This document shows, piece by piece, positions 36,081 to 54,251 of a DNA stretch of 60,642 bases. Origin of the DNA: Bacteroidales bacterium (lineage in GTDB: Bacteria; Bacteroidota; Bacteroidia; Bacteroidales; Muribaculaceae); assembly GCA_900755985.1 (NCBI GenBank), contig CAAEIL010000010.1:1-60642 (forward strand), given 5' to 3'. The translations under genes and the position numbers were made by a program. Below the pieces are notes generated by a model, which was given only the letters and a program-made list of their open reading frames with translations, was not told the origin of the DNA and did no database searches. Every line of letters begins with the position of its first letter. Position 1 is the first letter of the stretch.

Positions 36081-36142
36081 TCGAACCTTAAAGCCTTGAG
36101 GTTTGTTTGCATATAAAACACATAATAAAATCACATAATAAA

Positions 36143-36592: not shown

Positions 36593-36642
36593 ACAATAGT
36601 CAAAAGACTGATTAACCAAACTTAAAACACGCTTGTGTCAAA

Positions 36643-37086: not shown

Positions 37087-37152
37087 TACCCCAAAACATA
37101 TTCAGGCCACACTGATACTATTGTCACAAGCGGTCTACATTCCTGACATTCC

Positions 37153-37194
37153 AATCAGCTGTGCCTACGCATTGACGCGTAGGCACAGCTGATT
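37153..37194. terminator. Perfect 18-bp stem-loop, probable terminator
   Basis: AATCAGCTGTGCCTACGC-attgac-GCGTAGGCACAGCTGATT. Confidence 0.75.
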
Positions 37195-37334
37195 TGCTAT
37201 AAAAGGTTGACCCAAACATGCTATGCAACATATCTCCGAACATTGTTTTGTGAAAATATGTAGTTGATTATTAAAGAATGTTTACAGAGCTTGAATATTC
37301 TTTATTTTTTCTTTTCGGAGCAAAAAAATTAACT

Positions 37335-37342
37335 TATCTTTG
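37335..37342 (+). promoter_or_regulatory. -7 promoter box heading the PG-utilisation locus
   Basis: TATCTTTG in an AT-rich intergenic region. Confidence 0.65.
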
Positions 37343-37432
37343 TAGAAATAAAATGGGCAGTACATGAATGTACTATCACGTCATGTCGAAAGTTATTCCA
37401 AACTGTCCATCCTATACCATAAAAAACAAAAA

Positions 37433-40400
37433 ATGTACTGTCCTCTAACCAAAACCGTCCCAACCGTCGCCTTAGCTATCGCTATGGCTATGCCTGCGAC
37501 TATTGCGTATGCCTCGACTCCCGAGCAGGATGCCGTCACGTCCGCTCTTAAAAAACATTATCCCGGCACATCAAACCTCGGCGCTCTCCGTGTCGGCGCC
37601 GTCAATATCAATGACGATGCCAAGACTATCACCGCCGAGCTAAACGAGACCGCAGCTTATATTCCACTGACACAACAGACACTTGCCCAGCTAAAAAACG
37701 AAGTTGCTGCAGGTCTTGGCGACCGTTACGCCGACTATGACGTCAATCTCAACATCATTTACCGAGACAAAAAAGGCAACACAACCGACCGTGTAAGTCT
37801 CGACCAACTTGTTCTTTTCGCTCCCAAAAATGTAAAAGGTCCCACCGAGACCGACCCTTTCATATCACGACTTGATGCAGACAAAGCACCTGCAGGTCTC
37901 GATGGCAAAAACATAGCTCTATGGCAGAGTCACGGATGGTATTTCGAGCCTAAGCTAAACCGCTTCGAATGGCAGCGCGCACGTATCTTCCAGACCGTCG
38001 AAGACCTCTTTACTCAAAGTTACGTAATGCCCTACCTAATGCCTATGCTCGAAAATGCCGGCGCATACGTCATGTCACCTCGCGAACGCGACACCAACCC
38101 GGTCGAAATCATTATCGACAACGACGGTGCTCTCGCTCGGGGCAAATACACCGAAAATGGCTCATGGTCAGACGCCGGAACAGGATTCGCCTATAAGAAC
38201 AAGACATACAAGGACGTAGAAAACCCGTTCAGAGACGGTACTGCACGCAAAGCTAACGTCAGCGCACTTGCTGACAATGCAGCGCACGCCAGCTGGACAG
38301 CCGATTTTCCCAAAGCAGGCAACTATGCCGTTTACGTTTCTTACACATCACTGCCCGAGAGTGCCAAAGACGCCCTATACCGTGTCAATTCGAAAAACGG
38401 CTCAAAAGACTTCCGCATCAATCAGCAGATGGGCGGCGGAACATGGATATACCTCGGTCACTTTGACTTCGACAAAGGCACACCTGAACTGCCGGTAGTC
38501 GAACTTATAGCCCAGGGCGCCAACGGCGGAGTCGTAAGCGCCGATGCCGTAAAAATTGGCGGAGGAACCGGCAACATCGCCCGCAAAGTCAAAAATTCAA
38601 ACGACAACATCGAATACGACTACGTAACAAGTGACTATCCACGGTTCACCGAAGGCGCACGCTACTGGCTTCAGTGGGCCGGCGCTCCCGACAGCGTCTT
38701 TACCCCCTCGGGTAATGTCAACGACTACACTGACGATTACCGTTGCCGTGGTCTTTGGGTCAACTGGCTCACAGGCGGTTCATCAATGTTACCCGACCGC
38801 GCAGGCCTTAAAATTCCTGTCGACCTCTCGTTTGCCTGGCACTCTGACGCCGGCACTACCATGAACGACTCAATTATCGGCACACTCGGAATCTACTGCA
38901 CCGCCGGAGACAAATACGCCAACGGTAGCGACCGCAACACTTCGCGCGACTTCTGCGACCTGGTCATGACCAACATCGTTGACGACGTCCGCGCACAATT
39001 CGAGCCCAACTGGACACGGCGCGGAATGTGGAACTCGTCTTACTACGAAGCTCGCGTTCCCGAGGTTCCCGCCATGCTGCTCGAATTCCTTTCGCACCAG
39101 AACCTCGCCGACATGAAGTACGGTCTTGACCCCAACTTCCGCTTTACTGTCTCGCGTGCAGTATACAAAGGCATGCTCAAATATCTGGCACATCGCGATG
39201 GCCGCGAATATGTTGTCCAGCCACTTCCGGTACACGCTTTCGCAATCAACGGTGGTAATGACGGCCGATATAACTTGACATGGTCTGCCACCCCCGACTC
39301 GCTCGAAGCGACAGCAATGCCCACATATTATAATATAGAAGAGCGCGTAGGCGATGGTGGCTTCCGCAAAATAGCTCGTGTCACCGAACCTCGATTCGAG
39401 CTTACCGTCAATGACGAAGCCATACACAGCTATCGAATAATTGCCGGCAACGACGGCGGCGTATCATTCCCCTCCGAAGTCCTGGCACTCGCCTACCGGC
39501 CCGGCAAACCCGTGGTTACGATTGTCAACGGATTTACACGCGTTTCGGCCCCAGACACATTCGACTCGGGCGAAATTGCCGGATTCTACGACGCAAAAGA
39601 CGCCGGTGTTCCCTACGTCAGCGACATCTCGTACATAGGCCCCATGTTCGAGTTCCGCCGTAACATTCCATGGATGGATGATGATGCCGCAGGCTTTGGC
39701 GCCTCGCGCGCAAACTACGAAAAAGAAGTCATCGCCGGCAACACCTTCGACTTCGTCTATGCACACGGACGCGCAATCACTCAGGCCGGAATGGGCTTCA
39801 TCTCAAGCTCGGTAGAAGCTTTCACCAACACACTAGCAGATGCAGACTGCCCGATTGTCGACCTCATACTCGGCAAACAGAAAGAAATCAAACAGGGCCG
39901 GGGAGTTTACGGCACACGTTATAAGACATTCCCGACTGCCCTCCAGAACAAAATAAAGGCCATGACCGCCGTCGGCACATCGTTCTTTGTTTCCGGTGCT
40001 TATGTAGCAACGGACCTCTGGGACAATCCCAACTCGAGCGAAACTGTCGCTGAAGCCGATCAAAAATTCGCCACTGAAGTTCTCGGATATCACTGGCGCG
40101 TGGGACAGGCAAGCGTTACCGGTCAGGCCTACGAAGTCCAGTCACGCTTCAAAGCCTTCAATGGCGGCGAATTCGACTTCTCTAATATAATGAATTCCGA
40201 CTGCTACGCCGTCGAGTCGCCTGACTCGTTCTATGCTCCCGATACCGCGAAAGGCGCAACCATAATGCGTTACAGCGAAAACAACCTTGTCGCAGGCACA
40301 GCATTCGACCCCGGAACTTACCGTACGGTAGTCATCGGTTTCCCCTTCGAGACCATCAAAGGTGCCGATGCTCAGGCAAAGCTTATGAAACAGGTACTTT

Positions 40401-40486
40401 CATTCTTAAACGCTCCCAAAACTGTTTCCGCACCTGCCAAAGCCACAGCCAAAGGCAAAAAGAACGGCAAGAAAAACAAAAAATAA
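37433..40486 (+). CDS. Large secreted Amidase_3-like protein with golvesin-like insert and FN3 domain (family often labelled 'xanthan lyase')
   Basis: Signal peptide from ATG 37433 (ORF open from 37364). IALWQSHG, TVEDL, FAWHSDA and PAMLLEFLSHQN resemble Amidase_3 Zn/catalytic motifs. INQQMGGGTWIYLG..VSADAVKIGGG insert; FN3 LTWSATPD. Confidence 0.7.
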   Translation: MYCPLTKTVPTVALAIAMAMPATIAYASTPEQDAVTSALKKHYPGTSNLGALRVGAVNINDDAKTITAELNETAAYIPLTQQTLAQLKNEVAAGLGDRYADYDVNLNIIYRDKKGNTTDRVSLDQLVLFAPKNVKGPTETDPFISRLDADKAPAGLDGKNIALWQSHGWYFEPKLNRFEWQRARIFQTVEDLFTQSYVMPYLMPMLENAGAYVMSPRERDTNPVEIIIDNDGALARGKYTENGSWSDAGTGFAYKNKTYKDVENPFRDGTARKANVSALADNAAHASWTADFPKAGNYAVYVSYTSLPESAKDALYRVNSKNGSKDFRINQQMGGGTWIYLGHFDFDKGTPELPVVELIAQGANGGVVSADAVKIGGGTGNIARKVKNSNDNIEYDYVTSDYPRFTEGARYWLQWAGAPDSVFTPSGNVNDYTDDYRCRGLWVNWLTGGSSMLPDRAGLKIPVDLSFAWHSDAGTTMNDSIIGTLGIYCTAGDKYANGSDRNTSRDFCDLVMTNIVDDVRAQFEPNWTRRGMWNSSYYEARVPEVPAMLLEFLSHQNLADMKYGLDPNFRFTVSRAVYKGMLKYLAHRDGREYVVQPLPVHAFAINGGNDGRYNLTWSATPDSLEATAMPTYYNIEERVGDGGFRKIARVTEPRFELTVNDEAIHSYRIIAGNDGGVSFPSEVLALAYRPGKPVVTIVNGFTRVSAPDTFDSGEIAGFYDAKDAGVPYVSDISYIGPMFEFRRNIPWMDDDAAGFGASRANYEKEVIAGNTFDFVYAHGRAITQAGMGFISSSVEAFTNTLADADCPIVDLILGKQKEIKQGRGVYGTRYKTFPTALQNKIKAMTAVGTSFFVSGAYVATDLWDNPNSSETVAEADQKFATEVLGYHWRVGQASVTGQAYEVQSRFKAFNGGEFDFSNIMNSDCYAVESPDSFYAPDTAKGATIMRYSENNLVAGTAFDPGTYRTVVIGFPFETIKGADAQAKLMKQVLSFLNAPKTVSAPAKATAKGKKNGKKNKK

Positions 40487-40518
40487 ATCTATCACTTTTC
40501 TAAAAAATAACCTCAGAC

Positions 40519-41982
40519 ATGAAAAAAACAATTAATTGCTTCGTGCCATTCGCCGACGCAGAACAAGCCCGCGTTACCGTCGACGGTCTCAAACAAAGCC
40601 CCTTAGTTACCCAAATCTTTCTTCTGGCAACAAATTCCGAGGCCAAGGCCATCGAAGGGTGCGAACTTATTGCCATCGACGCCCTCAACTCGTCGGCTAC
40701 CATGAAAAAAATCGCCGCCGCCGCTGACAGCGACTTCATTCTGCTCTACACCAAATTTAACAATCTGGTAATGGGCTACTTTGCTCTCGACCGTTTTGTC
40801 CGTCTGGCCGAAGACTCGAAAGCCGGTATGCTCTATGCCGACAGCTACACCGTAGTCGAAGGCAAAAAATCCAACGCTCCGGTCATCGACTACCAGTTCG
40901 GCTCGCTTCGCGACGACTTCAACTTCGGCTCGGTGCTCTTCTTCAACACCGCTGACTTCAAAAAAGCCGCCCAAGGGATTGACACCGAGTACACCGCAGC
41001 CGGCCTCTACGACCTGCGCCTTCGTCTGAGCCGTATCGCTCCCATTGTTCATATCAACGAATATCTTTACAGCGACGTCACCGTTGACAACCGCAAATCG
41101 GGCGAAAAAATATTCGACTACGTTGACCCCAAAAACCGTGGCGTACAGATTGAAATGGAAAAAGCCTGCACAGCACATCTTAAAGCCATAGGTGGTTATC
41201 TCGAACCCAAATTCACCGGAATCGACTTCAACAAAGGCGATTTCGAATACGAAGCTTCGGTTATCATACCTGTACGAAACCGCATACGCACCATACGCGA
41301 CGCCATCAAATCAGTACTTTCTCAGAAAACCGACTTCCCCTTCAACCTCATCATCATCGACAACCTCTCGACCGACGGTACAACTGAAGCCATCGAAGAA
41401 TTCAAGGACGACCCCCGTCTGGTACACATCGTGCCCGAACGTGACGACCTTGGTATCGGCGGCTGCTGGAATGTCGGTGTACAGCATCCCAAATGCGGCA
41501 AATTCGCCATTCAGCTCGACTCGGACGACGTATACTCCGACGAGAACACACTGTCAAAAATGGTAAAAGCTTTCTATGACCAGAAATGCGCCATGGTTGT
41601 CGGCACCTACATGCTGACAGACATTGACAAAAACCCCATTCCGCCGGGCGTCATCGACCACAAAGAATGGACTCCCGAAAACGGCCGCAACAACGCACTG
41701 CGCATCAACGGTCTGGGCGCTCCCCGCGCATTCTACACCCCCATGCTGCGCGAAATCCATGTTCCCAACACATCGTACGGCGAAGACTACGCCCTGGGAC
41801 TCGCCTTCTCACGCCATCACCAGATAGGTCGCGTATACGACGTTGTCTACCTGTGCCGCCGTTGGGACGACAACTCGGACGCCAATGTCGACGTTGTCAA
41901 GATGAACAACAACAACCTCTACAAAGACCGCATCCGCACCTGGGAACTCCAGGCACGTTGCGCCATGAACGCCGAAAAATAA
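40519..41982 (+). CDS. Two-domain family-2 glycosyltransferase-like protein
   Basis: C-terminal GT-A: SVIIPVRN, DNLSTDGT, QLDSDD, GEDY; N-terminal degenerate GT-A half; no signal peptide or TM. Confidence 0.85.
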   Translation: MKKTINCFVPFADAEQARVTVDGLKQSPLVTQIFLLATNSEAKAIEGCELIAIDALNSSATMKKIAAAADSDFILLYTKFNNLVMGYFALDRFVRLAEDSKAGMLYADSYTVVEGKKSNAPVIDYQFGSLRDDFNFGSVLFFNTADFKKAAQGIDTEYTAAGLYDLRLRLSRIAPIVHINEYLYSDVTVDNRKSGEKIFDYVDPKNRGVQIEMEKACTAHLKAIGGYLEPKFTGIDFNKGDFEYEASVIIPVRNRIRTIRDAIKSVLSQKTDFPFNLIIIDNLSTDGTTEAIEEFKDDPRLVHIVPERDDLGIGGCWNVGVQHPKCGKFAIQLDSDDVYSDENTLSKMVKAFYDQKCAMVVGTYMLTDIDKNPIPPGVIDHKEWTPENGRNNALRINGLGAPRAFYTPMLREIHVPNTSYGEDYALGLAFSRHHQIGRVYDVVYLCRRWDDNSDANVDVVKMNNNNLYKDRIRTWELQARCAMNAEK

Positions 41983-42007
41983 TCGTTGCGTAAAAACGAA
42001 AGAGAAT

Positions 42008-42955
42008 ATGACACGTATCTCATCGGCACTCGCCGACAAGCTTATAGCCGAACAAATTGCCGAGTGGCCTCAGGCCGCCGGCAATTTCGAGGCGCTAAAA
42101 GGCGTCCGCGTCAAAGACCTTGATGTCGACGGCATGCACATCAAAGTACAGTTCAACCCCGCACGCATTGTCTCGTCATCGGCAAAGGTCGATGCCAAGA
42201 GCCTCAAAGAACGTAAATGCTTTCTCTGCGGCGCAAACCGTCCCGAAGTCCAAAAAGGGCTCTCCTGGGGTAAAGATGACAAATACATCGTACTCATCAA
42301 TCCTTTCCCCATCTTCCCCCGCCACCTCACCATTCCCGACAACAATCACGTCGACCAGCTTATCGTCGACCGGGCCGAGGACATGATGGACCTTGCTTCA
42401 GATCTCGATTCATACACCGTGTTTTACAACGGACCCAAATGCGGAGCTTCTGCGCCCGACCATATGCATTTCCAGGCCGGGAACAGCGACTTTCTGACCA
42501 TTGACGAAAACCTCGACGGCGCTGACCTTAAAACCGTTGCCGAGGATAATGGCGCAACACTGGCTCTTGTCGACACCATGCCACTGAAAGTCTTTGTCAT
42601 CGATGCCGAAGACCATAAAGCCGGTGCCAGCTTGTTCCGTCGACTCTATGATGCAATGCCCATACCCGAAGGCGAACGCGAGCCTATGATGAACATCCTT
42701 TGCTACGCCACACCCGCCGGTGTCCGCATGGTTGTCATTCCCCGCAAACGTCACCGTCCGTCGTTCTATGGCATGCCCGAAGACGGTGAGGACAAAATGT
42801 TGCTATCTCCTGCCTCGGTCGACATGGGAGGCGTATTCATCACCCCTCTTGAAAAAGACTTCGACAAGGTCGACTCTGACCTCATTAAAGTAATTCTTGA
42901 CGAACTCTGCCTGAGCAAGGACGAAATCGACGCAATCGCCGAAAACGTAAAATAA
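42008..42955 (+). CDS. DUF4922 family protein (HIT/GalT-like HxHxQ nucleotidyl-transfer motif)
   Basis: QFNPARIVSS, CFLC, NPFPIFPRHLTI, FYNGPKCGASAPDHMHFQAG, SPASVDMGG. Confidence 0.85.
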   Translation: MTRISSALADKLIAEQIAEWPQAAGNFEALKGVRVKDLDVDGMHIKVQFNPARIVSSSAKVDAKSLKERKCFLCGANRPEVQKGLSWGKDDKYIVLINPFPIFPRHLTIPDNNHVDQLIVDRAEDMMDLASDLDSYTVFYNGPKCGASAPDHMHFQAGNSDFLTIDENLDGADLKTVAEDNGATLALVDTMPLKVFVIDAEDHKAGASLFRRLYDAMPIPEGEREPMMNILCYATPAGVRMVVIPRKRHRPSFYGMPEDGEDKMLLSPASVDMGGVFITPLEKDFDKVDSDLIKVILDELCLSKDEIDAIAENVK

Positions 42956-42967
42956 GATACTCTACAA

Positions 42968-43006
42968 TATCCGAGCCGGAGACCTTTGCTATCTCCGGCC
43001 CGGATA
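42968..43006 (+). terminator. Intra-operon stem-loop
   Basis: TATCCGAGCCGGAGA / TCTCCGGCCCGGATA (one mismatch); no T tract. Confidence 0.5.
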
Positions 43007-43077
43007 ATAAAAACCAAGGGACACAATCCCACTCAAGACAGCAAAAGACATTCTTCTAAACTACAACGACAGAAAAT

Positions 43078-44394
43078 ATGTTAGAACCTTTTGTAAAAGT
43101 AGGCATACTCAACGCCCATACAATCGACATAGTCCTGCTTGACACATACACAGTCGACGGACACGAAGTCCGCGGACCACAGACCCTGAGTGCTACTCCT
43201 GATGGTAAAATAGCATGGCAGGGACGCGAATATGACGGACAACTCGAATTCCACCCATACAATCCTGGAGGAATATTCGAAATCAAGGACGTAGTCATCG
43301 GTGTCAACTTCCACTGGGAGCGCAAAGAGGACCAGCGCTTCAGCGGCTCGGCACGCTTCATAGTCGAAGATGGCCGACTGACAATAATCAACATACTGCC
43401 TGTCGAAGACTACCTGCTAAGCGTCATTTCATCCGAAATGAGCGCCAACGCATCGCTTGAGCTTCTCAAAGCCCATGCCGTTATTTCACGCTCGTGGCTT
43501 CTGGCTCAGATTGACAAAAACAAACAGCTTACAGCCGAAGCCACACCCTACTCTGCATGCACCGAGACCGAAACCGAGCGCATCAAGTGGTATGACCGCG
43601 AAGACCATGTCAACTTTGACGTCTGCGCCGACGACCACTGCCAGCGTTATCAGGGTGTGACACGTCAGTCAACCCCCAAAGTTGCCGAGGCAATAAAAGC
43701 CACACGCGGACAGGTGCTGATGTACGACGACATGCTGTGCGATGCCCGTTTCTCGAAATGCTGCGGCGGCGTGTTCGAACGTTTCGAAAACTGTTGGGAA
43801 CCAAAATCGCTCCACTACCTTGCCGCTCGCGCCGACAAACCCGACGAGAATGATTACCCCGACCTGACAATCGAAGAAAATGCGCGCCAATGGATACTCT
43901 CGCGCCCGGAAGCGTTCTGCAACACCTCGGACGCCTCCATACTGTCGCAGGTTCTCAACAACTACGACCAGGAAACAACAGACTTCTTCCGCTGGAAAGT
44001 AGAATATGACGCCGAAAAACTTAGCGAAATCGCCTGCCGCCGCTCGGGAATCGACTTCGGCCGCATCATTGACCTCGAGCCCCTTGAGCGCGGAACTTCG
44101 GGACGTATAGTCCGTCTTAAAATCACGGGCACCAAACGCACAATGATTTTCGGCAAAGAACTCGAAATACGCAAAACACTATCCGAGTCTCATCTGTACT
44201 CATCGGCATTCGTCGTCGAAAAACAAGGCGACCCGGCTATGCCCTCGAAATTTATACTCCACGGCGCCGGATGGGGACACGGCGTTGGCCTGTGCCAGAT
44301 AGGTGCAGCCGTCATGGGAGCCAAAGGCTACGACTATCGCAACATCCTCGCACACTACTTTGTCGATGCCGAAATCCGGCCCATGTACGAATAA
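43078..44394 (+). CDS. SpoIID/LytB family lytic transglycosylase
   Basis: VEDYLLSVISSEM (catalytic Glu), LKAHAVISRS, CADDHCQRYQG, GWGHGVGLCQIGA, ILAHYF. Confidence 0.92.
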   Translation: MLEPFVKVGILNAHTIDIVLLDTYTVDGHEVRGPQTLSATPDGKIAWQGREYDGQLEFHPYNPGGIFEIKDVVIGVNFHWERKEDQRFSGSARFIVEDGRLTIINILPVEDYLLSVISSEMSANASLELLKAHAVISRSWLLAQIDKNKQLTAEATPYSACTETETERIKWYDREDHVNFDVCADDHCQRYQGVTRQSTPKVAEAIKATRGQVLMYDDMLCDARFSKCCGGVFERFENCWEPKSLHYLAARADKPDENDYPDLTIEENARQWILSRPEAFCNTSDASILSQVLNNYDQETTDFFRWKVEYDAEKLSEIACRRSGIDFGRIIDLEPLERGTSGRIVRLKITGTKRTMIFGKELEIRKTLSESHLYSSAFVVEKQGDPAMPSKFILHGAGWGHGVGLCQIGAAVMGAKGYDYRNILAHYFVDAEIRPMYE

Positions 44395-44538
44395 CCTAAT
44401 ACGTATATTAATCAAATCCAATCACCACATATACCGATTGTGAGTCTTTTACGCCTCATCGGACATTAGATTTTCCCTACTCAGCATACAATCCCTAAAT
44501 ATACCCTGAATATTTAAACCAATAATCACATAACTACA

Positions 44539-45903
44539 ATGAGAAAAGCGACCAAACGCAACCCATGGGCCTGGATTCCGACCCTCTATTTCGCACAAGG
44601 CATACCGTTTATTTTTATAAACATGGTCACCATGGTGCTCTTTACCCAACTCGGCATGAGCAAAGCCGATGCAACAATGTACACCGGATGGCTTTATCTG
44701 CCCTGGGTAATCAAACCCTTCTGGGGTCCTATCGTCGACATCATCAAAACCAAACGTTGGTGGACAGTCACTATGCAGCTGTGTGTAGCCATCGGCCTTG
44801 GTCTCATTGCATTCACCCTTCCCATGCCTTCAGAAGCCGCAATCAAAGCAGGTCTTCCGGTAAGCGCCTTTATGGTCTGCCTCTTCTTCTACTTCGTCAC
44901 AGCATTCTGCTCGGCCACTCATGACATAGCCTCGGACGGTTTCTACATGATAGCCCTCAACACCAACGAGCAGAGCCTCTTTGTCGGTATCCGCTCGACA
45001 TTCTACCGCTGTGCAAGCGTTTTCGGCCAGGGTGGTCTGGTTATCATAGCCGGATTGCTCGAGACAGCAACAGGCAGTGTTGCCTCAGGCTGGTTCTGGA
45101 CTGTAATCGGTTGTGCTGTCTTCTTTGGCATAGTATTCATCTATCATGCCTTTATACTCCCCTACCCCGAAGCAGACCGACCTGTCGGTGGCGAAGGTGC
45201 CAAATCCATTTCGGGTATTCTCCGCGAATTTGCCGGTTCGTTCGGCACATTCTTCAAAAAGAAATATGTCATCCTTGCAATGCTTTTCATGCTTCTATAT
45301 CGTCTTCCTGAGGCTCAGGTAGTCAAGCTTTGCCAGGTATTTCTTCTTGCTCCGCGCGACGCCGGCGGTCTGGGAATGACACAGACCGAAGTAGGTTTTG
45401 CATACGGCGTCCTTGCCATCATAGGTCTCACTGTCGGCGGTATCATCGGCGGCATCTGCGCATCCCAGGGCGGTCTCCGCAAATGGATCTGGCCTATGGC
45501 TTTGGCTACCTCACTCAACTGCGTTGCTTATATCATCCTTTCCAACATTCAGCCTGACTACACTATTCTCTCCGGCAAAATCATCATCTGGTGCTGCATA
45601 GTTCTCGAACAATTCGCTTACGGATTCGGCTTTACGGCCTTTATGCTCTTTATGATGTATTTCTCAGAAGGCCCGTACAAAACATCGCATTACGCAATTT
45701 GCACCGCTTTTATGGCACTCGGCATGATGCTTCCCGGCATGGCCGCAGGCTGGATTATGGAAAATCTCCTTGGTGACTCTTACGTCAACTTCTTCTTCTG
45801 GGTTCTTTGCTGCAACCTTGCAACCTGGTGTGTAACAGCGCTGGTACGTCCTCACATCAATCCCGAGTACGGAGCCAAGCGTGTTGAGAAAAAAACAAAA
45901 TAA
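44539..45903 (+). CDS. ampG: AmpG-like muropeptide MFS permease
   Basis: LYFAQGIP, LPWVIKPFWGP, SATHDIASDG; about 12 TMs. Confidence 0.85.
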   Translation: MRKATKRNPWAWIPTLYFAQGIPFIFINMVTMVLFTQLGMSKADATMYTGWLYLPWVIKPFWGPIVDIIKTKRWWTVTMQLCVAIGLGLIAFTLPMPSEAAIKAGLPVSAFMVCLFFYFVTAFCSATHDIASDGFYMIALNTNEQSLFVGIRSTFYRCASVFGQGGLVIIAGLLETATGSVASGWFWTVIGCAVFFGIVFIYHAFILPYPEADRPVGGEGAKSISGILREFAGSFGTFFKKKYVILAMLFMLLYRLPEAQVVKLCQVFLLAPRDAGGLGMTQTEVGFAYGVLAIIGLTVGGIIGGICASQGGLRKWIWPMALATSLNCVAYIILSNIQPDYTILSGKIIIWCCIVLEQFAYGFGFTAFMLFMMYFSEGPYKTSHYAICTAFMALGMMLPGMAAGWIMENLLGDSYVNFFFWVLCCNLATWCVTALVRPHINPEYGAKRVEKKTK

Positions 45904-45913
45904 TAACGTAACA

Positions 45914-47146
45914 ATGAAACGAATACTCAGCATAGCTCTCGCCGCCATAGTTGCTCTTGGCACAATGGCTCATGTGAAACCCGGTATCGAGGTTTTGCGC
46001 GACCGCGGATTTGAAGGTCTCAAAGGCAAACGCGTGGGTCTCATTACCAATCCGACCGGTGTCGACAACAAACTGAAATCGACGATCGACATTCTGCACG
46101 AAGCGCCCGATGTACAGCTTGTGGCTCTCTTTGCACCCGAACACGGCGTGCGCGGCGATGTACACGCCGGCGACCACGTGGACAACTTTGTAGACCCGGC
46201 AACCGGTGTCACCGTATACTCAATGTACGGCAAGACACGCAAGCCCACTCCCGAAATGCTAAAGGACATCGACGTACTGATATATGACATCCAGGACATA
46301 GGCTGTCGCTCGTACACTTTCATCTCATCGATGGGTGTGGCTATGGAAGCCTGCGCCGAACTTGGTAAGGAATTCATGGTCCTCGACCGTCCAAATCCAG
46401 TCAGCGGTAACAAAGTCGAAGGCAACCTCACCGAGCCCGACTGCATATCGTTCGTCAGCCAGTTTGCCATACCGTATCTCTATGGTCTGACTCCGGGCGA
46501 ACTCGCCAATATGCTTAACGGAGAAGGCATGCTCGAAGGCGGCAAGAAAGTCAAACTTACTGTCGTACCCATGGACGGCTGGAAACGCAACATGACTTTT
46601 GCCGACACCAAGATGCCTTGGGTATTGCCCTCACCGCATATCCCCAATCCCGAAGCCGCCGTTATGTATCCCGTTTCGGGTATCCTCGGCGAACTCGGCT
46701 ACATGTCAATCGGTGTCGGATACACCGAGCCTTTTAAGCTATTCTGCTCTGTATGGACAAATGCCGAAGAACTCGCCCGCCGCATGAACGCACTCAATCT
46801 TCCCGGCCTTATGTTCCGCCCCATTCACATAAAGCCATTCTACTCGGTCGGTGCCGGCAAAAATCTTCAGGGTATCGAAGTCTATGTCACCGATGTAGAG
46901 AAAGCGCCTCTGTCGCTCGTCCAATTCTATGTCATGCAGGAAGACGCCGCCATGAACCCCGACAAAGCCACCTTCAAGGAAGGCAATGCCGACCCAAAAC
47001 GTTTCAGCATGTTTGACAAAGTCTCCGGCTCCAAGCAGATTCGCGAGCGTTTTGCCAAGAACCATAAAGTCGCTGACATCATTGACTACTGGAACAAAGA
47101 TGCCGAATCCTTCAAAGCAAAATCGGCCAAATATTATCTCTATTGA
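45914..47146 (+). CDS. namZ: Exo-beta-N-acetylmuramidase NamZ (DUF1343), secreted
   Basis: Signal peptide; VGLITNPTG, FAPEHG, YDIQDIGCRSYT, VLDRPNP, WVLPSPHIP. Confidence 0.9.
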   Translation: MKRILSIALAAIVALGTMAHVKPGIEVLRDRGFEGLKGKRVGLITNPTGVDNKLKSTIDILHEAPDVQLVALFAPEHGVRGDVHAGDHVDNFVDPATGVTVYSMYGKTRKPTPEMLKDIDVLIYDIQDIGCRSYTFISSMGVAMEACAELGKEFMVLDRPNPVSGNKVEGNLTEPDCISFVSQFAIPYLYGLTPGELANMLNGEGMLEGGKKVKLTVVPMDGWKRNMTFADTKMPWVLPSPHIPNPEAAVMYPVSGILGELGYMSIGVGYTEPFKLFCSVWTNAEELARRMNALNLPGLMFRPIHIKPFYSVGAGKNLQGIEVYVTDVEKAPLSLVQFYVMQEDAAMNPDKATFKEGNADPKRFSMFDKVSGSKQIRERFAKNHKVADIIDYWNKDAESFKAKSAKYYLY

Positions 47147-47172
47147 TTCAACGAACACAAAACAAAGCCACA

Positions 47173-50100
47173 ATGCCTGAACGGGATACATACAAACTGT
47201 TTGTCAGCGACCTGAGCAAGACGGTCGACCGTAAACGCATTTATACCGACCCGCTGCGCTGTTTCGGCTGGGGTACAGACGCCGGATTCTACCGTATGAC
47301 TCCGCAAGTCGTCGTCCGTGCCGCCAATACTAAAGAAGTTTCGGAAGCGCTTAAGATCGCCACACGCTATAATCTGCCTGTGACCTTCCGTGCAGCCGGC
47401 ACATCTCTGTCAGGACAGTCAATCAGCGACTCTATTCTCATCGTCGCCGGCAAACATTGGGAAAAGTACGAAATCGGCGACGAAGGTAATCTGATAACGC
47501 TCCAGCCCGGTATCATAGGCCAGCGAGTCAACGAACTTCTTGCTCCCTACGGCAAACAGTTCGGTCCCGACCCGGCATCCAAGAAATCAGCCATGGTCGG
47601 CGGCATAGTCATGAACAATGCTTCGGGCATGAACTGCGGCGTCCACGCCAACTCAGACCGCTGTCTGGTATCCATTGAGCTTGTACTTGCCGACGGCACA
47701 ATACTTGACACCGCCGATGAAAACTCACGTCAGGCTTTCATGCTCAGTCACGGCCATGTAATAGAGGAAATTTGCGCCATTCGTGACGCCATTCGCCGCA
47801 ACGACGAACTTGTCAGACTTATACACTACAAATATGCCATCAAGAACGTTACCGGCCTCAATCTTTTGCCCTTCGTAACCTACGAAGACCCGTTCGAAAT
47901 CATAGCCCACTGCATGGTCGGCAGCGAAGGTACACTCGGTTTCATGTCACGTGTGACCATGAAAACGGTCCACCTTTATCCCTTCACGGCCTCGGCAATG
48001 CTCTACTTCAGTGACATGGCCGAAGCCTGCCGGGCGGTCGTCGCCATGCGCAAGGATGCACCGATACAGTCGTGCGAGCTTCTTGACAAAAAATCACTGT
48101 CTACAGTCCACGACAACACCGGCGAAGGTCTCACGGCCCTATTGCTCGAGACAAAAGCCGACACGCGCGAACAACTTGACGAAAATATTGCCAAGGTCCT
48201 TGAAGTTCTACGCCCGTTCGACATGTTCCAACAGCCACACTTCACCACTGACCCCGACGAATACGTCGCCTGGTGGGCCATACGCTCGGGCATATTCCCG
48301 GCTGTCGGCGGAACACGCCGTCCCGGCACCACTGCACTCATCGAGGACATCGCATTTCATATCGAAGACCTGCCCGAGGCCACGGTAGCTTTAGCCGACA
48401 TTCTCGCCCGTTCGGGATATGACGATGCCTGTATATACGGCCACGCCCTCGAAGGCAACTACCACTTCATAATTTCGCAGGCCTTTGACTCACCTCAGGA
48501 AATTGAGCGCTACCGCAGTCTAATGTCCGAGATCGAGCATCTTGTCACCGAGCGCTTCCATGGTTCGCTAAAAGCCGAGCACGGCACCGGACGCAACATG
48601 GCGCCTTTCGTCCGCCACGAATGGGGTGACGATGCCTGGCAGATGATGCGTAGGCTCAAGCAAGCCCTTGACCCTAAAGGACTGCTCAACCCCGGTGTCA
48701 TCTTTAACCCCGACCCCGAGTGTTATATCAAGCATCTGAAGTCGCTGCCACTGTTTTACGAACCCGCCGACCGATGCATCGAATGTGGATTCTGCGAAGT
48801 CAACTGCGTGTCGTGCGGGCTAACCCTCTCGGCACGTCAGCGTATCGCCGTCCAGCGCGAAATTACACGTCTCAAACACACCGGTCAGGAACCCGGGCGC
48901 CTGAATCTGCTCGAGAAATCCTTCCGCTATTACGGTGACGAAACATGCGCCGGCGACGGATTGTGCTCGACATCGTGCCCTATGAAAATCAATACCGGCG
49001 ACCTTGTACATGCAATACGCCAGAAATCGCTTCCCGAAGGCTCGACCGGTTACAAAATCGGCAACTGGGCCGCAAACCATCTTCCGTCCATAAAAGGGAC
49101 ACTGCGTCCCATGCTCAGCACCGCAAACGGTGTACGCAGCGTCATCGGCGACAAAGCCGTCAACGTCCTTGGCCGGGGACTCCATAAACTTGGCTTGCCT
49201 TTGTGGAACTCGTCTCTGCCCGGAGCATACCATCGTCACGACATGGCACAACAGCCTCAGGCAAGCAAAGTCGTATATTTCCCCTCATGCATCAACCAGA
49301 CTATGGGGTCGACTGCCGAAGGCAAAACCAAGCCCAGACCACTGATTGATGTCATGGTGGAACTTTGCAACAAAGCCGGATACGAAGTCATTTTCCCCGC
49401 TAATATGAACGCTTTGTGCTGCGGTATGATATGGTCGAGCAAGGGCATGCCGGATATTGCACAGCGCAAGAGCGATGAACTCGAAAAAGCACTCCGCACC
49501 GCCTCGTGCGACGGTAAATATCCCATACTCTGCGACCAAAGCCCGTGCCTGCATCACATGCGCGAGCACATGAAATCGCTGAAGTTATTTGAGCCGGCCG
49601 AGTTCATCGAGAAATTCCTTGTTCCCAACCTCATTTTCCGCCCTACCGATACCCCCGTTGCCATACATGTAACATGCTCGACTCGACGCATGGGGCTCGC
49701 CGACACCATAATCTCGCTAGCACGACGCTGTTCGTCCGACGTCATGATTCCCACCGAGGTAGGATGCTGCGGTTTTACCGGCGACAAGGGCTTTACATAT
49801 CCCGAGCTCAACGCATGGGGTCTGCGCAAACTCCGCGTACAAATACAGGCCGCCGGTATAAAATACGGTTACTCCAACTCGCGCACCTGCGAGATAGGTC
49901 TTTCGGCCAACTCCGGAATTCCCTACAAATCGATAGCCTATCTTGTCAACGAGGTGACACGTCCCCGAGGTTACGACCCCGCATACGACGAAAAGCCCGC
50001 TGAGCAGGACAATGCCGAACTTAACTTCGGACACACCGAGGATTTGTATCACACAGACACCGAACGTCTGAGCGAATTCATGCCCAAAGAACAAATCCGG

Positions 50101-50241
50101 GACAACAGCACATATCTTACCGATCGCGAAAGTACCGGGACAGAAAATTGTAGTGTCACAGATGCAGTTGACGACAGTACCCAAATCATCTATGGCGACA
50201 CCGATTCCGACGAAACAAAAATCATCTACGACAAAAACTAA
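47173..50241 (+). CDS. FAD- and Fe-S-binding oxidoreductase, Dld-II-type D-lactate dehydrogenase, with acidic C-terminal extension
   Basis: FRAAGTSLSGQ, GSEGTLG, GHALEGNYH, KAEHGTGRNM, CIECGFCEVNC, two CCG domains. Confidence 0.82.
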   Translation: MPERDTYKLFVSDLSKTVDRKRIYTDPLRCFGWGTDAGFYRMTPQVVVRAANTKEVSEALKIATRYNLPVTFRAAGTSLSGQSISDSILIVAGKHWEKYEIGDEGNLITLQPGIIGQRVNELLAPYGKQFGPDPASKKSAMVGGIVMNNASGMNCGVHANSDRCLVSIELVLADGTILDTADENSRQAFMLSHGHVIEEICAIRDAIRRNDELVRLIHYKYAIKNVTGLNLLPFVTYEDPFEIIAHCMVGSEGTLGFMSRVTMKTVHLYPFTASAMLYFSDMAEACRAVVAMRKDAPIQSCELLDKKSLSTVHDNTGEGLTALLLETKADTREQLDENIAKVLEVLRPFDMFQQPHFTTDPDEYVAWWAIRSGIFPAVGGTRRPGTTALIEDIAFHIEDLPEATVALADILARSGYDDACIYGHALEGNYHFIISQAFDSPQEIERYRSLMSEIEHLVTERFHGSLKAEHGTGRNMAPFVRHEWGDDAWQMMRRLKQALDPKGLLNPGVIFNPDPECYIKHLKSLPLFYEPADRCIECGFCEVNCVSCGLTLSARQRIAVQREITRLKHTGQEPGRLNLLEKSFRYYGDETCAGDGLCSTSCPMKINTGDLVHAIRQKSLPEGSTGYKIGNWAANHLPSIKGTLRPMLSTANGVRSVIGDKAVNVLGRGLHKLGLPLWNSSLPGAYHRHDMAQQPQASKVVYFPSCINQTMGSTAEGKTKPRPLIDVMVELCNKAGYEVIFPANMNALCCGMIWSSKGMPDIAQRKSDELEKALRTASCDGKYPILCDQSPCLHHMREHMKSLKLFEPAEFIEKFLVPNLIFRPTDTPVAIHVTCSTRRMGLADTIISLARRCSSDVMIPTEVGCCGFTGDKGFTYPELNAWGLRKLRVQIQAAGIKYGYSNSRTCEIGLSANSGIPYKSIAYLVNEVTRPRGYDPAYDEKPAEQDNAELNFGHTEDLYHTDTERLSEFMPKEQIRDNSTYLTDRESTGTENCSVTDAVDDSTQIIYGDTDSDETKIIYDKN

Positions 50242-50278
50242 CAAAATCCTGATTTAACCCTGAATAACTAAAAATCCG

Positions 50279-51496
50279 ATGAAAAAACATTCGACAGCGG
50301 TCGAAGTTGCCGTTCCGGCACACGAGAAACAACGTCCCAAGCGCCTTCTTGCTCTGGACATACTGCGCGGTATCACCATCGCCGGTATGATTCTTGTCAA
50401 CAATCCGGGCTCGTGGGGACATATCTATCCTCCTCTGGAGCATGCCTTGTGGAACGGACTGACACCAACCGACCTGGTTTTCCCCTTCTTCATGTTCATC
50501 ATGGGAGTGTCGACATATTTTTCACTGCGCAAATACGACTTCCGTCTGTCGTGGCCCGCAGCGTGGAAAATATTGCGCCGCACCGTGGTGATATTTCTTA
50601 TAGGCTTGTTCATTGCCTGGTTTGGTCTGTTCCTAAAGCGCTATACAGTCAACGAACTGACATTCTGGGATTCTGTACTTAACTTTGACGACATACGCAT
50701 ACTCGGCGTTATGCCTCGACTGGCCATCTGTTACGGCATAGGCTCGCTTCTTGCACTGGCTATGCGCCGCAAAGGCTTACCATGGCTCATTGCCGGTATG
50801 CTTGTAATCTATGCCATAATATTACTTAGCGGCGACGGCTTCAGTTTTTCGCGACACAACGTAATCGCTGTTGTTGACCGCGCAGTACTCGGAGAGCCGC
50901 ACATGTACTCCGATACAATTGACGGCCTGACGCTGAAGTTCGATCCCGAAGGCTTGTTGTCAACGCTTCCATCGATAGCACACATGCTCATAGGTTTTCT
51001 TTGTGGTGGAATCATTGTCGCCACCAAAGACAACACACTTCGCATCAACAAACTTTTCATCATAGGCACTATACTGACCTTCAGCGGATTCCTCCTCGAT
51101 TTCGGGATGCCTATAAACAAAAAAATCTGGTCGCCGACATTTGTTCTTACTACCTGCGGCCTGGCATCGCTATTTCTGGGACTGCTGATATGGATTATAG
51201 ACATCAAAGGCTACAAGAAATGGTGCCGCTTCTTCGAAGTCTACGGCATCAACCCTCTTTTTATGTACGTACTCGGCGCACTGCTGTCGCAGATTATCTC
51301 CTTTACAAAAATAAGCTGGAGCGGAGCCGAAAGCGGACTCATATCAATCAAAGGTTTCATTTACAAAGCTTGCTTAATTCCCGTCTGCTGCGGCGACGAG
51401 ACTTTAGCCTCGCTTATATTCGCCCTACTGTTCGTTTGCACGACATGGGTTTTCGGTTATTATTTGTATAAAAATAAAATTTACATAAAAATATGA
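50279..51496 (+). CDS. HGSNAT/NagX-like (DUF5009/DUF1624) membrane acetyltransferase
   Basis: RLLALDILRG, LEHALWNG.TPTDLVFPFF, FDPEGLLST, PINKKIWSPTF. Confidence 0.85.
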   Translation: MKKHSTAVEVAVPAHEKQRPKRLLALDILRGITIAGMILVNNPGSWGHIYPPLEHALWNGLTPTDLVFPFFMFIMGVSTYFSLRKYDFRLSWPAAWKILRRTVVIFLIGLFIAWFGLFLKRYTVNELTFWDSVLNFDDIRILGVMPRLAICYGIGSLLALAMRRKGLPWLIAGMLVIYAIILLSGDGFSFSRHNVIAVVDRAVLGEPHMYSDTIDGLTLKFDPEGLLSTLPSIAHMLIGFLCGGIIVATKDNTLRINKLFIIGTILTFSGFLLDFGMPINKKIWSPTFVLTTCGLASLFLGLLIWIIDIKGYKKWCRFFEVYGINPLFMYVLGALLSQIISFTKISWSGAESGLISIKGFIYKACLIPVCCGDETLASLIFALLFVCTTWVFGYYLYKNKIYIKI

Positions 51497-52335
51497 TACT
51501 AATTGCTGACTGTGGAAGTACCAAGATAGACTGGTGCCTCATTGAAAATTCAAAAGTAATCAATCAGGTGTTCACCTGCGGAATGAATGCCGTCATGCTC
51601 ACCGAAGAAGAAATGGCTTCGCGCATCGCCACTGAACTCATGCCCGAGCTGGGGCATCACGACATAGACGCCGTCTACTTCTACGGCGCCGGATGCATCA
51701 GCCCTGAAGTCTGCGGCAACGTAGCCAACGCTATACGCAAATCCATCCCCGCCCCCATAATCGAAGTGCATACCGACCTGCTGGCTGCCGCCCGCGCACT
51801 ATGCGGACACAAACCCGGCATCGCCTGCATCATGGGAACCGGCTCCAACTCGTGCTACTATGACGGCAATGAAATCTGCGACAACGTCTCGCCCTTAGGT
51901 TACATCCTCGGCGACGAAGGCTCGGGTGCCGTCCTTGGCAAGATTCTTGTCGGCGACGTCCTCAAGAATCAACTTCCGGCCGAACTCTGCGACAAATTCC
52001 TCAAGCAGTACGAACTTGACCGTCTGACCATCATACGCCGTGTATATAAAGAGCCTCAGGCCAACCGCTTCTTGGCTTCGGTTACACCCTTCCTTATCCA
52101 GAACATCGAACATCCCGCCATACATGCGCTTGTGCTCAACTCGTTCAAATCGTTCTTTGTACGCAACGTATGCCAGTACAAAGGCTTCAAAGAGCTCAAA
52201 GTCAACTTTATCGGCTCCATTGCCTACTACTACCGCGACATACTCAGCGAAGCCGCACGCGAATGTTGCTGCTCTGTAGGCACCATTATTAAAAGTCCAA
52301 TGGAAGGTCTCATTGCTTTCCACGCCAACAACTGA
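51493..52335 (+). CDS. murK: BadF/BadG/BcrA/BcrD-type amino-sugar kinase (MurNAc/GlcNAc kinase, MurK-like)
   Basis: ILIADCGSTK, FYGAGC, GTGSN, LGYILGDEGSG, FIGSIA; directly upstream of murQ. Confidence 0.75.
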   Translation: MILIADCGSTKIDWCLIENSKVINQVFTCGMNAVMLTEEEMASRIATELMPELGHHDIDAVYFYGAGCISPEVCGNVANAIRKSIPAPIIEVHTDLLAAARALCGHKPGIACIMGTGSNSCYYDGNEICDNVSPLGYILGDEGSGAVLGKILVGDVLKNQLPAELCDKFLKQYELDRLTIIRRVYKEPQANRFLASVTPFLIQNIEHPAIHALVLNSFKSFFVRNVCQYKGFKELKVNFIGSIAYYYRDILSEAARECCCSVGTIIKSPMEGLIAFHANN

Positions 52336-52440
52336 ACACGAACCGATTAGTGGCACGACTTGTCCGGTAACGATTTGCCTCGCAGGCTAATTCCACATCA
52401 TTTTATTTCACAACCATAAAGTCATCCTAACTACAAAGAT

Positions 52441-53259
52441 ATGGCATTTGTCAAAATTTCAGAGCAGCCTTCGCGCTATAACGACCTTGAAAAAAAATCT
52501 GTCGGCGAAATACTGCACGACATCAACAACGAAGATAAAAAAGTAGCATACGCTGTCGAAAAAGCTATACCTCAGATTGAAAAACTCGTCACCGAAATTG
52601 TCGCACGCATGAAACGCGGCGGACGCATCTTCTATATGGGAGCCGGCACATCGGGACGTCTCGGCGTGCTTGACGCATCCGAGATTCCTCCCACATTCGG
52701 CATGGACCCCACGTGGGTCATCGGACTCATTGCCGGCGGTGACATTGCCCTTCGCAACCCTGTAGAAAACGCCGAAGACGATACACTGCAAGGGTGGAAA
52801 GACCTTCAGCAGTTCAACATCAACGACCGCGATACCGTAATAGGCATCGCTGCTTCAGGCACAACGCCATACGTCATCGGCGCTATCAAGGAAGCCCGCA
52901 AACACGGCATACTCACCGCTGCCATCACATCGAATCCCGATGCTCCCGTTTCTGAAGCCGCGGACATCGCCATCGAAATGATTGTCGGCCCTGAATACGT
53001 CACCGGCTCGTCGCGCATGAAATCCGGTACAGGTCAAAAAATGATATGCAACATGATTACCACCTCGGTAATGATTCAGATGGGCCGTGTCAAAGGCAAC
53101 AAGATGGTCAACATGCAACTGTCAAACGCCAAACTTGTCGACCGCGGAACACGCATGGTCGTCGAAGAACTAGGCCTGCCATACGACGATGCCAAACGTC
53201 TGCTGCTGCTGCACGGCTCGGTAAAACCAGCCGTTGACGCTTACAACGCCGACAAATAA
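52441..53259 (+). CDS. murQ: N-acetylmuramic acid 6-phosphate etherase
   Basis: GAGTSGRLGVLDASE.PPTFG, AASGTTPY, GPEYVTGSSRMKSGTGQKM, SNAKLVDRG. Confidence 0.96.
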   Translation: MAFVKISEQPSRYNDLEKKSVGEILHDINNEDKKVAYAVEKAIPQIEKLVTEIVARMKRGGRIFYMGAGTSGRLGVLDASEIPPTFGMDPTWVIGLIAGGDIALRNPVENAEDDTLQGWKDLQQFNINDRDTVIGIAASGTTPYVIGAIKEARKHGILTAAITSNPDAPVSEAADIAIEMIVGPEYVTGSSRMKSGTGQKMICNMITTSVMIQMGRVKGNKMVNMQLSNAKLVDRGTRMVVEELGLPYDDAKRLLLLHGSVKPAVDAYNADK

Positions 53260-53289
53260 CAATATACTGAAATTCAAAAGCTTAGACCC

Positions 53290-53322
53290 AAGGCCTCGCA
53301 GATTATAATTCTGCGTGGCCTT
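53290..53322 (+). terminator. Stem-loop after murQ
   Basis: AAGGCCTCGCAGA / TCTGCGTGGCCTT (one mismatch). Confidence 0.6.
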
Positions 53323-53361
53323 TAGGGTATCTGACACACCCACCCCCAATTTTTACACACT

Positions 53362-54057
53362 ATGAAAGCTAAAATACTTCTAAGTACAGCGCTTGTCATC
53401 GCCATGTGCTCGTGCGCGACTGCTCAGTCTCACGAAAAATCAGACACCCAACCCGCCCCCGCCAAGTATACCGAATTATATTACCAGAGGGCTTCGCTTT
53501 TCAACGCCCTGCCAGTCGACACCAACTCGATTGTCATGCTGGGCAACTCGCTGACCCACGGATGTGAATGGCACGAACTCTTCGGGATGCCCAACATACT
53601 CAACCGTGGCATCAACGGTGACATCGTACAGGGCGTACGCGAACGCGTCGACCATATTGTTCAGGGACACCCCAAAAAGATATTCCTGCTAACCGGTGTC
53701 AACGACGTCAGTCACAATCTAACCGCCGACTCCATAGCAACGGCTCTTGGCAACCTAATAAAATACATTCGGGCCCAGTCTCCTCAGACACATCTTTATG
53801 TCGAGTCGCTGCTTCCCATCAACAATTCGTTCGGACGCTATAAAGCCATCTTCGGCAAGGAGCTGGTTATCCGCGACATCAACGCAAAACTCGAAGGCAT
53901 AGCCAAAGAAAACGGCGCGACATGGATTAATATCAATCCCTACTTCGCCGACAAAGATGGCAACCTCCGCGCCGACCTCACAAACGACGGTCTGCATCTG
54001 CTCGCTCCCGGATATATGATATGGAAAGAGCTGCTGCTCCCCTATATCAAAGAATAA
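53362..54057 (+). CDS. SGNH/GDSL acetylesterase, exported (possible lipoprotein)
   Basis: GNSLT, NRGING, GVND, DGLH blocks; signal peptide ending MCSC. Confidence 0.88.
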   Translation: MKAKILLSTALVIAMCSCATAQSHEKSDTQPAPAKYTELYYQRASLFNALPVDTNSIVMLGNSLTHGCEWHELFGMPNILNRGINGDIVQGVRERVDHIVQGHPKKIFLLTGVNDVSHNLTADSIATALGNLIKYIRAQSPQTHLYVESLLPINNSFGRYKAIFGKELVIRDINAKLEGIAKENGATWININPYFADKDGNLRADLTNDGLHLLAPGYMIWKELLLPYIKE

Positions 54058-54251
54058 TCCAACAAGGCGTTTGACTTCGGCCCGGCGTACTGACCAAAAT
54101 CATTGGGGGACAAAAATCACCCCGAACCATTTTGCACATCAGATTGTTAACAATTCGTGTCGAAAGTGTACATCTGCACCGGGCCTGCCGGGTATGAACA
54201 CACCGTCGGCATCACTTTCAACTATTTCATCACATTTATCGGAGCCCGCAA

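Follow-up and report, generated by a model that had tools for sequence, protein, structure and literature searches.

A Tannerella-type peptidoglycan-sugar salvage operon in Muribaculaceae, a family with many genomes lacking murA and murB

Introduction

In the oral bacterium Tannerella forsythia, genes Tanf_08345-08385 form a single transcript, confirmed by reverse transcription PCR, in the order 'xanthan lyase', gtf, gtf, lytB, ampG, ybbC (namZ1), murT, murK, and murQ (PMC5388701). This organism grows on the disaccharide of N-acetylglucosamine (GlcNAc) and 1,6-anhydro-N-acetylmuramic acid (anhMurNAc), and poorly on anhMurNAc, without AnmK, by a route described in that source as unexplored (PMC7670621). 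The pathway amidase is 'so far unidentified' in the wording of bioRxiv 2021.12.02.470905, in which a Bacteroides fragilis cluster of the same type is also noted. It was also reported that glmS and canonical glmU are missing from T. forsythia, and an AmgK-MurU recycling shortcut is known in Pseudomonas (PMC5790795). The comparison with T. forsythia made here draws on PMC5388701, PMC7670621, and bioRxiv 2021.12.02.470905. It concerns 11 co-oriented genes on the plus strand (37364-54057) of a 60,642-nucleotide stretch of DNA, contig CAAEIL010000010.1 of the gut Muribaculaceae assembly GCA_900755985.1, which is called the window.

With fairly good confidence, the locus is explained as a Tannerella-type operon for the salvage of peptidoglycan sugars, which in this murA-deleted, murB-less lineage is probably the only source of N-acetylmuramic acid (MurNAc) for the cell's own wall. 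As far as genome sequences tell, deletion has removed the de novo route to MurNAc from a large part of the Muribaculaceae, which keep the operon intact, and this is the new element. Literature searches, with subscription papers and supplements outside their reach, found no paper on murA or murB loss in Muribaculaceae, and neither murA nor muramic acid or auxotrophy turned up in term searches of PMC11356848, PMC4936053, and PMC6381624.

Comparison with Known Operons

Nine window genes correspond, in the same order, to the T. forsythia operon (PMC5388701), orthology being judged by gene order, families, and PDB matches. The likeness extends to the host lineage, from which murA and murB are absent; AnmK was found in 0/5 genomes, the window genome among them, and glmS and canonical glmU were likewise found in 0/5 genomes checked. 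The window differs in an extra dehydrogenase gene, encoding a flavin adenine dinucleotide (FAD)/iron-sulfur (Fe-S) enzyme, between namZ and murT, in an extra SGNH gene after murQ, and in its gut rather than oral host. An earlier note on this DNA, made from the sequence alone, had proposed a peptidoglycan-glycan salvage operon of 11 co-oriented genes, namely amidase-like, glycosyltransferase family 2 (GT2), DUF4922, SpoIID, AmpG, NamZ, D-lactate dehydrogenase, HGSNAT/NagX-like, MurK-like, MurQ, and SGNH. The open reading frames and family matches bear out this list, the order upholds the salvage reading, and NagZ, AnmK, and SusC/D are, as stated there, none of the 11.

The neighbourhood comparison which that note called for found the linkage kept. 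The first ten genes stand in window order in 12/12 loci fetched from murA-negative relatives, and the order is therefore far beyond chance; SGNH follows murQ in 9 of these 12, and one of eight murA-positive loci has ten genes in window order. Among 80 DUF4922-centred loci, many of which sit on contigs that end early, GT2 was present in 79, SpoIID in 78, AmpG in 74, NamZ in 72, MurK in 62, amidase and MurT in 55 each, and dehydrogenase and MurQ in 52 each. The closest relatives of the window DUF4922 carry mostly Muribaculaceae titles (top match 81%). The combination, which the earlier note could not confirm as undescribed, is not new: apart from the T. forsythia transcript, the dehydrogenase-bearing form was present in 52 of the 80 loci and is common in Bacteroides, where loci L069, L072, L074, L085, L097, and L100 show the same order, dehydrogenase included. 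However, those Bacteroides genomes have murA, their loci include another NamZ gene upstream, and the distance from amidase to GT2 is usually some 2 kb greater. Tandem duplications of GT2 in G012 (L011:14155-17121) and of the amidase in G017 (L015:3-4399) were also observed.

Absence of murA and murB

The family survey comprised 200 genomes, at least 90% complete and spread evenly over 29 genera; the sample is genus-balanced and gives no abundance estimate. MurA was found in 129 (127 over the cut-off, one split, and one partial) and murB in 126, weak murA-profile matches (E 1e-4 to 1e-14), which are read as AroA, being left out of the murA counts. Both genes were not found in the same 71 genomes, which fall in 14 of the 29 genera and include 13 of the 14 genomes sampled from the window's genus. 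As a control, murA was found in 243 of 247 genomes from other families of the order.

The ancestral site of murA lies between DUF4290 and rimM, as in Bacteroides, Barnesiella, Mediterranea, and genera g20, g23, g27, and g29. In 30/30 of the genomes lacking both genes (murAB-negative) that were tested (30 of the 71, from 12 genera), DUF4290 and rimM are 18-76 bp apart versus 1367-1461 bp in 9/9 controls, and because DUF4290 abuts rimM, the absence of murA is read as a deletion. Candidatus (Ca.) Limisoma faecipullorum is a named example. This scar and the control rule out assembly gaps as the cause in the relatives, but not in the window genome. The scar test gave no call for two Ca. Egerieisoma genomes, nor for the separate genomes G223 and G242. 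In Ca. Egerieisoma (L070, L073), murA was not found in 2/2 genomes and DUF4922 is fused to SpoIID; it may be a further auxotrophic lineage.

The window genome (2.2 Mb, 318 contigs) is 79% complete. The genome search proposed in the earlier note yielded a NagZ-like GH3 gene on contig C238, whereas anmK, murA, murB, amgK, and murU were not found in this assembly; its own lack of murA and murB is uninformative because of the low completeness and the other genes missing with them, and its status is therefore taken from its kin. In an RpoB tree, the window genome stands apart from G007 and G112, which are assigned to the same genus; support is weak, and the placement loosens conclusions drawn from the genus. 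An ordinary recycling or catabolic operon of a prototroph, with murA and murB in the unassembled 21%, for example as a re-acquired cassette as in G007, is unlikely. It would fit the incomplete assembly with its other unassembled wall genes, the murB-murA cassette of G007 in the same genus, and the frequency of the operon in murA-positive Bacteroides, but both genes are missing from those 13 of 14 genomes, and G007, which alone in the genus has murA, is without DUF4922 and has an operon in pieces, whereas the window operon is intact.

Operon Retention and Probable MurNAc Auxotrophy

The murAB-negative genomes have kept the salvage genes: DUF4922 occurs in 70/71 versus 111/129 murA-positive genomes, MurT-like genes in 70/71 versus 41/129, MurQ in 70/71 versus 20/129, and AmgK-like genes in 68/71 versus 116/129 (184/200 overall). 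The sole murAB-negative genome missing DUF4922, MurT, and MurQ is G150 (90% complete). Judged by eye, 65 of the 71 have DUF4922 and MurT in linkage, five have them on different contigs, and one has neither; among the 129 murA-positive genomes the two genes are linked in ten, and three gave no clear call. A wall is apparently still made, because MurC and the other ligases are present in 4/4 murAB-negative relatives (MurC is absent from the window assembly). The murAB-negative Muribaculaceae are thus probably MurNAc auxotrophs like T. forsythia. Of the purpose given in the earlier note, salvage of peptidoglycan stands, probably from other bacteria as was suggested there, while the main purpose is probably the building of the own wall, given the deletion of murA and the lack of murB in this lineage; the two genes appear in that note only among its proposed checks. 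Overall, the interpretation in that note is partly supported.

As in Pseudomonas, an AmgK-like kinase gene adjoins a MurU-like gene in 4/4 relatives checked, their activities being assumed from family and adjacency. Unlike the Pseudomonas shortcut, the pair lies outside the operon, is not found in the window assembly, and is missing the AnmK entry step. Genera g20 and g23 present the mirror image of the murAB-negative genera, with ancestral murA and murQ kept and AmgK-like genes absent in 11/11 genomes.

Ether formation in water is unfavourable, which counts against MurNAc synthesis by a reversed MurQ from GlcNAc-6-phosphate (GlcNAc-6-P) and D-lactate. That murAB-negative lineages make MurNAc in this way, or by a non-homologous enzyme pair, and so are not auxotrophs, is very improbable. 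In its favour, MurQ is the best-conserved operon gene (75-93% identity) and travels with the dehydrogenase, and three murAB-negative genomes have neither amgK nor murU; against it, T. forsythia is a strict auxotroph despite its MurK and MurQ (PMC5790795), and the whole import apparatus is retained in 70/71.

Several observations weigh against the salvage operon as the source of MurNAc for the wall. The window assembly is also without murC, rimM, DUF4290, amgK, and murU, and G007, of the same genus, has murA and murB. The association between the operon and murAB status is not significant by phylogenetic pairing (five independent pairs, about two the same way, none opposite, p 0.5 by sign test), the pairs being taken from a 29-row RpoB tree whose backbone is weak; Fisher tests, which ignore kinship, were not relied on. 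The operon coexists with murA in 19 of 50 genomes outside the family, 14 of these being named members of Bacteroides, Barnesiella, Mediterranea, and Dysgonomonas, and 20 of the 129 murA-positive family genomes retain murQ. MurK and MurQ destroy a sugar that an auxotroph needs. In G021, G096, and G038, listed as 99% complete, murA, murB, amgK, and murU are missing while operon markers are kept, and the AmgK route fails to explain them because amgK and murU are absent; either these assemblies have gaps at the amgK-murU pair or there is another route to uridine diphosphate (UDP)-MurNAc. The Amidase_3 match of the first gene falls below the Pfam cut-off (15.4 bits for the window protein versus 27), and enzyme activities, growth dependence, and transcription in this organism are predictions from sequence. 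That the operon implies murA loss is ruled out, since it is common in murA-positive genomes; as the genomes read, it is ancestral and permitted murA loss, and is no marker of it.

Loss and Proposed Regain of murA

Among 30 murA-positive family genomes, 25 bear the same DUF4290-rimM scar, and in the other five murA still occupies its ancestral site. Most of the sampled relocated genes are neighbours of murB, in places that vary; together the relocated genes make up a single clade (96/90) whose sister is Bacteroides plus Mediterranea (100/99), while copies from the ancestral site fall with Barnesiella. A single clade of all 22 family MurA rows was rejected by an approximately unbiased test chosen after the tree was seen (p-AU 0.013), and murA-negative rows do not form one clade. 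The best reading appears to be several losses followed by lateral regain of a murB-murA cassette, the relocated cassette being probably imported. One early relocation followed by losses is a possible alternative, the sampling being three outgroup genera and the root.

Proposed Pathway

A general scheme of the pathway is as follows. In the periplasm, the amidase would strip stem peptides, the SGNH hydrolase would take off O-acetyl groups, and NamZ1 would free GlcNAc-MurNAc, as shown for T. forsythia. AmpG would then import GlcNAc-MurNAc and GlcNAc-anhMurNAc, and MurT would import MurNAc (both shown for T. forsythia). In the cytoplasm, the SpoIID/GT2/DUF4922 trio, as its fusions and location suggest, would split the disaccharide without AnmK. 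MurNAc might follow two branches, being converted to UDP-MurNAc by the unlinked AmgK and MurU, as proposed for T. forsythia, or to GlcNAc-6-P and D-lactate by MurK and MurQ, as shown there, and the D-lactate would be oxidised by the FAD/Fe-S enzyme.

With regard to the first gene, 14 of the 15 members aligned match PF01520 when E values of up to 1 are allowed (the best, 3.8e-5, is below the curated cut-off), and H190, E213, H493, and E574, which we take to be the zinc ligands (His/Glu/His) and catalytic Glu of Amidase_3, are invariant in 15/15. The protein also has an inserted carbohydrate-binding module (CBM)-like domain, a fibronectin type III (FN3) domain, and a C-terminal class I glutamine amidotransferase (GATase)-like domain, and a hydrophobic N-terminus occurs in 53 of 60 members. 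Because of the weak match, the four invariant His/Glu residues, and the export, the amidase-like label given in the earlier note holds, and the gene looks like the obvious candidate for the missing amidase of the pathway. No amidase was among the fold-search matches of the modelled protein; the segments with its active site scored below 50 in the predicted local distance difference test (pLDDT), and this part was barely probed. A xanthan lyase identity was rejected: the likeness is confined to residues 243-402, the CBM-like insert, and the 6f2p match spans only its residues 901-1040, with no lyase catalytic domain.

The trio appears to be cytoplasmic. A hydrophobic N-terminus, used as a signal proxy (not SignalP), was detected in 6/92 SpoIID, 4/106 GT2, and 2/88 DUF4922 proteins versus 97/102 NamZ proteins. 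One-frame fusions within the trio occur in 25 of 120 loci, 14 of which were chosen for long frames, and comprise 19 DUF4922-SpoIID, four GT2-DUF4922, and two triple fusions; a natural triple fusion is present in G045. SpoIID is therefore unlikely to be the outside depolymerase envisaged earlier, because it is signal-less and fused to cytoplasmic enzymes, its place being behind DUF4922. Its residues E120, H133, H177, C183, H187, and C188, presumably the catalytic Glu and Cys/His site, are invariant in 13/13. In GT2, D334/D336/D337 and E422/D423 are invariant in 18/18, the N-terminal half is nearest to GT2 clusters, and the two-half layout is similar to that of chondroitin synthase.

DUF4922 is, on sequence criteria, a relative of the Ap4A-phosphorylase/GDP-sugar-phosphorylase type: H152/H154/Q156 are invariant in 14/14, GDPGP1_C or Ap4A_phos_N is also present in the Atlas clusters closest to it, and the HxHxQ motif and profile match are common to it, yeast Apa2, and VTC2/GDPGP1. 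Unlike these, it is bacterial, fused to GT2 and SpoIID, and has no assigned substrate. Its single-sequence fold was unusable (pLDDT 34). The papers found that name DUF4922 concern eukaryotic GDP-sugar phosphorylases, and searches found no paper on the function of bacterial DUF4922 (subscription papers and bioRxiv supplements were outside reach).

The trio is a candidate AnmK-free route for the disaccharide, judged by its fusions and location, and the proposal in the earlier note that uncharacterised genes fill the NagZ/AnmK gap is probably right, the trio being cytoplasmic and fused and AnmK missing from all five genomes. As to the chemistry, SpoIID might open the 1,6-anhydro ring, GT2 might run in reverse (disaccharide + UDP -> UDP-GlcNAc + MurNAc), and DUF4922 might recycle UDP by phosphorolysis or uridine monophosphate (UMP) exchange; this scheme is tentative and rather doubtful. 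DUF4922 and GT2 as substitutes for AmgK and MurU are unsupported, because AmgK-like genes occur in 68 of the 71 murAB-negative genomes. GT2 enzymes normally run forward, and the trio might instead build or turn over a cytoplasmic glycan or nucleotide-sugar pool, with DUF4922 in a GDPGP1-like clean-up role and an unlinked hydrolase splitting the disaccharide. The chondroitin synthase-like layout, the shared GDPGP1_C clusters, and the persistence of the trio, by its DUF4922 marker, in 111/129 murA-positive genomes favour such a role, which is nevertheless very improbable: AmpG comes after the trio in 74 of 80 loci, AnmK is missing, and the N-terminus of the NagZ-like GH3 protein of the window genome looks, by eye, like a signal peptide.

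Other Operon Genes and Locus Layout

The features of the locus are shown in Table 1. The AmpG substrate, GlcNAc-(anh)MurNAc, is assigned after PMC7670621; AmpG is about 180 residues longer, with an internal insertion, in L007, L010, L013, and L019. NamZ is probably of the NamZ1 (disaccharide-releasing) type, 4K05 being taken as BfNamZ1 from the listing order in bioRxiv 2021.12.02.470905.

The dehydrogenase matches D-lactate, glycolate, and D-2-hydroxyglutarate enzymes alike. Its orthologue (at least 57% identity, with 12 paralogues at 34-36% dropped) occurs in 88 of 90 murQ-positive and 0 of 110 murQ-negative family genomes. This co-occurrence fits D-lactate disposal and argues for a putative D-lactate dehydrogenase serving MurQ, as the earlier note had it. 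Its C-terminus (49963-50241) is an acidic tail of about 90 residues; aligned relatives stop at residue ~942.

For the next gene, the HGSNAT/NagX family was recognised earlier, but not that it occupies the place of the MurNAc transporter gene murT (Tanf_08375). A His precedes the WxGxT motif in 49/49 motif-matching frames, and in view of this and the HGSNAT likeness, a side role in acetyl transfer is possible. The SGNH protein may be an O-acetyl esterase for modified glycan. In Bacteroides sp. KG123 (L107:15829-18600), a single frame of 924 codons encodes both MurQ and an SGNH domain. The window genome has another MurK-like kinase, with about 40% identity, at G000:C41:2107-2944, and one is found near the operon start, upstream of the amidase, in several genera (L014, L016, L017, L019).

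Table 1. Features of the salvage locus in the window.
Feature	Position	Strand	Basis	Family match
Bacteroidota-type -7 promoter box TAnnTTTG	37335..37342	+	sole intergenic match in 37087-54250; no clean -33 box	
Exported Amidase_3-like Zn amidase (candidate), counterpart of Tanf_08345 'xanthan lyase'	37364..40486, likely start 37433	+	PF01520, invariant His/Glu	Golvesin_C
Soluble cytoplasmic GT2; N-terminal GT2-like half degenerate, C-terminal half intact	40519..41982	+	PF00535	Glycos_transf_2
DUF4922, HxHxQ nucleotidyl-transfer enzyme	42008..42955	+	profile match to yeast Apa2 4i5t, E 1.5e-7	DUF4922
Hairpin without U-tail, gap after DUF4922	42968..43007	+	whole gap -28.4 kcal/mol, no shuffle control	
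SpoIID/LytB-family enzyme without signal peptide, counterpart of TfLytB; fusions to DUF4922 frequent	43078..44394	+	family match, invariant residues	SpoIID
AmpG-type major facilitator superfamily (MFS) importer of GlcNAc-(anh)MurNAc (predicted)	44539..45903	+	TIGR00901 E 9e-41, below cut-off; position as Tanf_08365	MFS/AmpG-type
Exported GH171 NamZ	45914..47146	+	4k05 E 2e-172 vs 4jja E 3e-49	NamZ_N+C
FAD/Fe-S D-2-hydroxy-acid dehydrogenase	47143..50241, likely start 47173	+	family matches	FAD_binding_4+FAD-oxidase_C+Fer4+CCG
MurT-position membrane protein, HGSNAT/NagX family	50279..51496	+	position as Tanf_08375; human HGSNAT 8vkj E 1.5e-23	NagX-like (below cut-off)
MurK-type MurNAc 6-kinase	51493..52335	+	8oqw, 8ow9 ('putative novel MurNAc kinase') E ~1e-100; position as murK	BcrAD_BadFG
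MurQ etherase	52441..53259	+	NF003915 371 bits vs cut-off 168; TIGR00274 above cut-off	MurQ (above cut-off)
Hairpin without U-tail, between murQ and SGNH	53278..53335	+	whole gap -27.7 kcal/mol, no shuffle control	
Exported SGNH hydrolase	53362..54057	+	PF13472; signal proxy 16/16	GDSL/SGNH

The intergenic distances from gene 1 to gene 11 are 32, 25, 122, 144, 10, -4, 37, -4, 105, and 102 bp. From these short gaps and the upstream box, which we take to match the Bacteroidota-type -7 consensus, one promoter for all 11 genes is plausible; hairpins that have no U-tail come after DUF4922 and murQ. Scans for sigma-70 promoters (29 versus 19.0±5.3) and terminators (29 versus 20.8±4.9) were near shuffle level, and neither result was used. 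Two tandem PepSY-like (BLIP-like) exported proteins are encoded just upstream of the operon (36107-37086), and a bacterial alpha-2-macroglobulin of 1756 residues at 27196-32466.

Implications

Few Muribaculaceae have been cultured so far. To our knowledge, MurNAc auxotrophy among walled free-living bacteria is known only from T. forsythia. In mouse gut samples, the family has a mean relative abundance of about 20% (PMC6381624). Sodaliphilus pleomorphus is described as slow-growing, with irregular rods that reach 50 µm, and as boosted by neighbours (PMC7738495), as would be expected of an auxotroph. The present analysis names candidates for two steps left open in the T. forsythia work, the amidase and the use of the anhydro-sugar without AnmK.

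A wider view, to which less than even credence is given, is that MurNAc auxotrophy is widespread and has been repeatedly lost and regained in Muribaculaceae, in which entire genera would live on the walls of neighbours by means of this operon and several lineages would have escaped by import of the murB-murA cassette; auxotrophy would then be a main cause of the resistance of many members to culture, and the trio would convert GlcNAc-anhMurNAc to nucleotide-activated wall precursors by a new route independent of AnmK. MurA is the target of fosfomycin, and if auxotrophy is true, murAB-negative members should therefore be indifferent to it. If about one third of the sampled species depend on the walls of others, these bacteria would drain peptidoglycan fragments from the gut, MurNAc or peptidoglycan in media would be a cheap cultivation test, and murAB-negative Muribaculaceae might become culturable once MurNAc is supplied.

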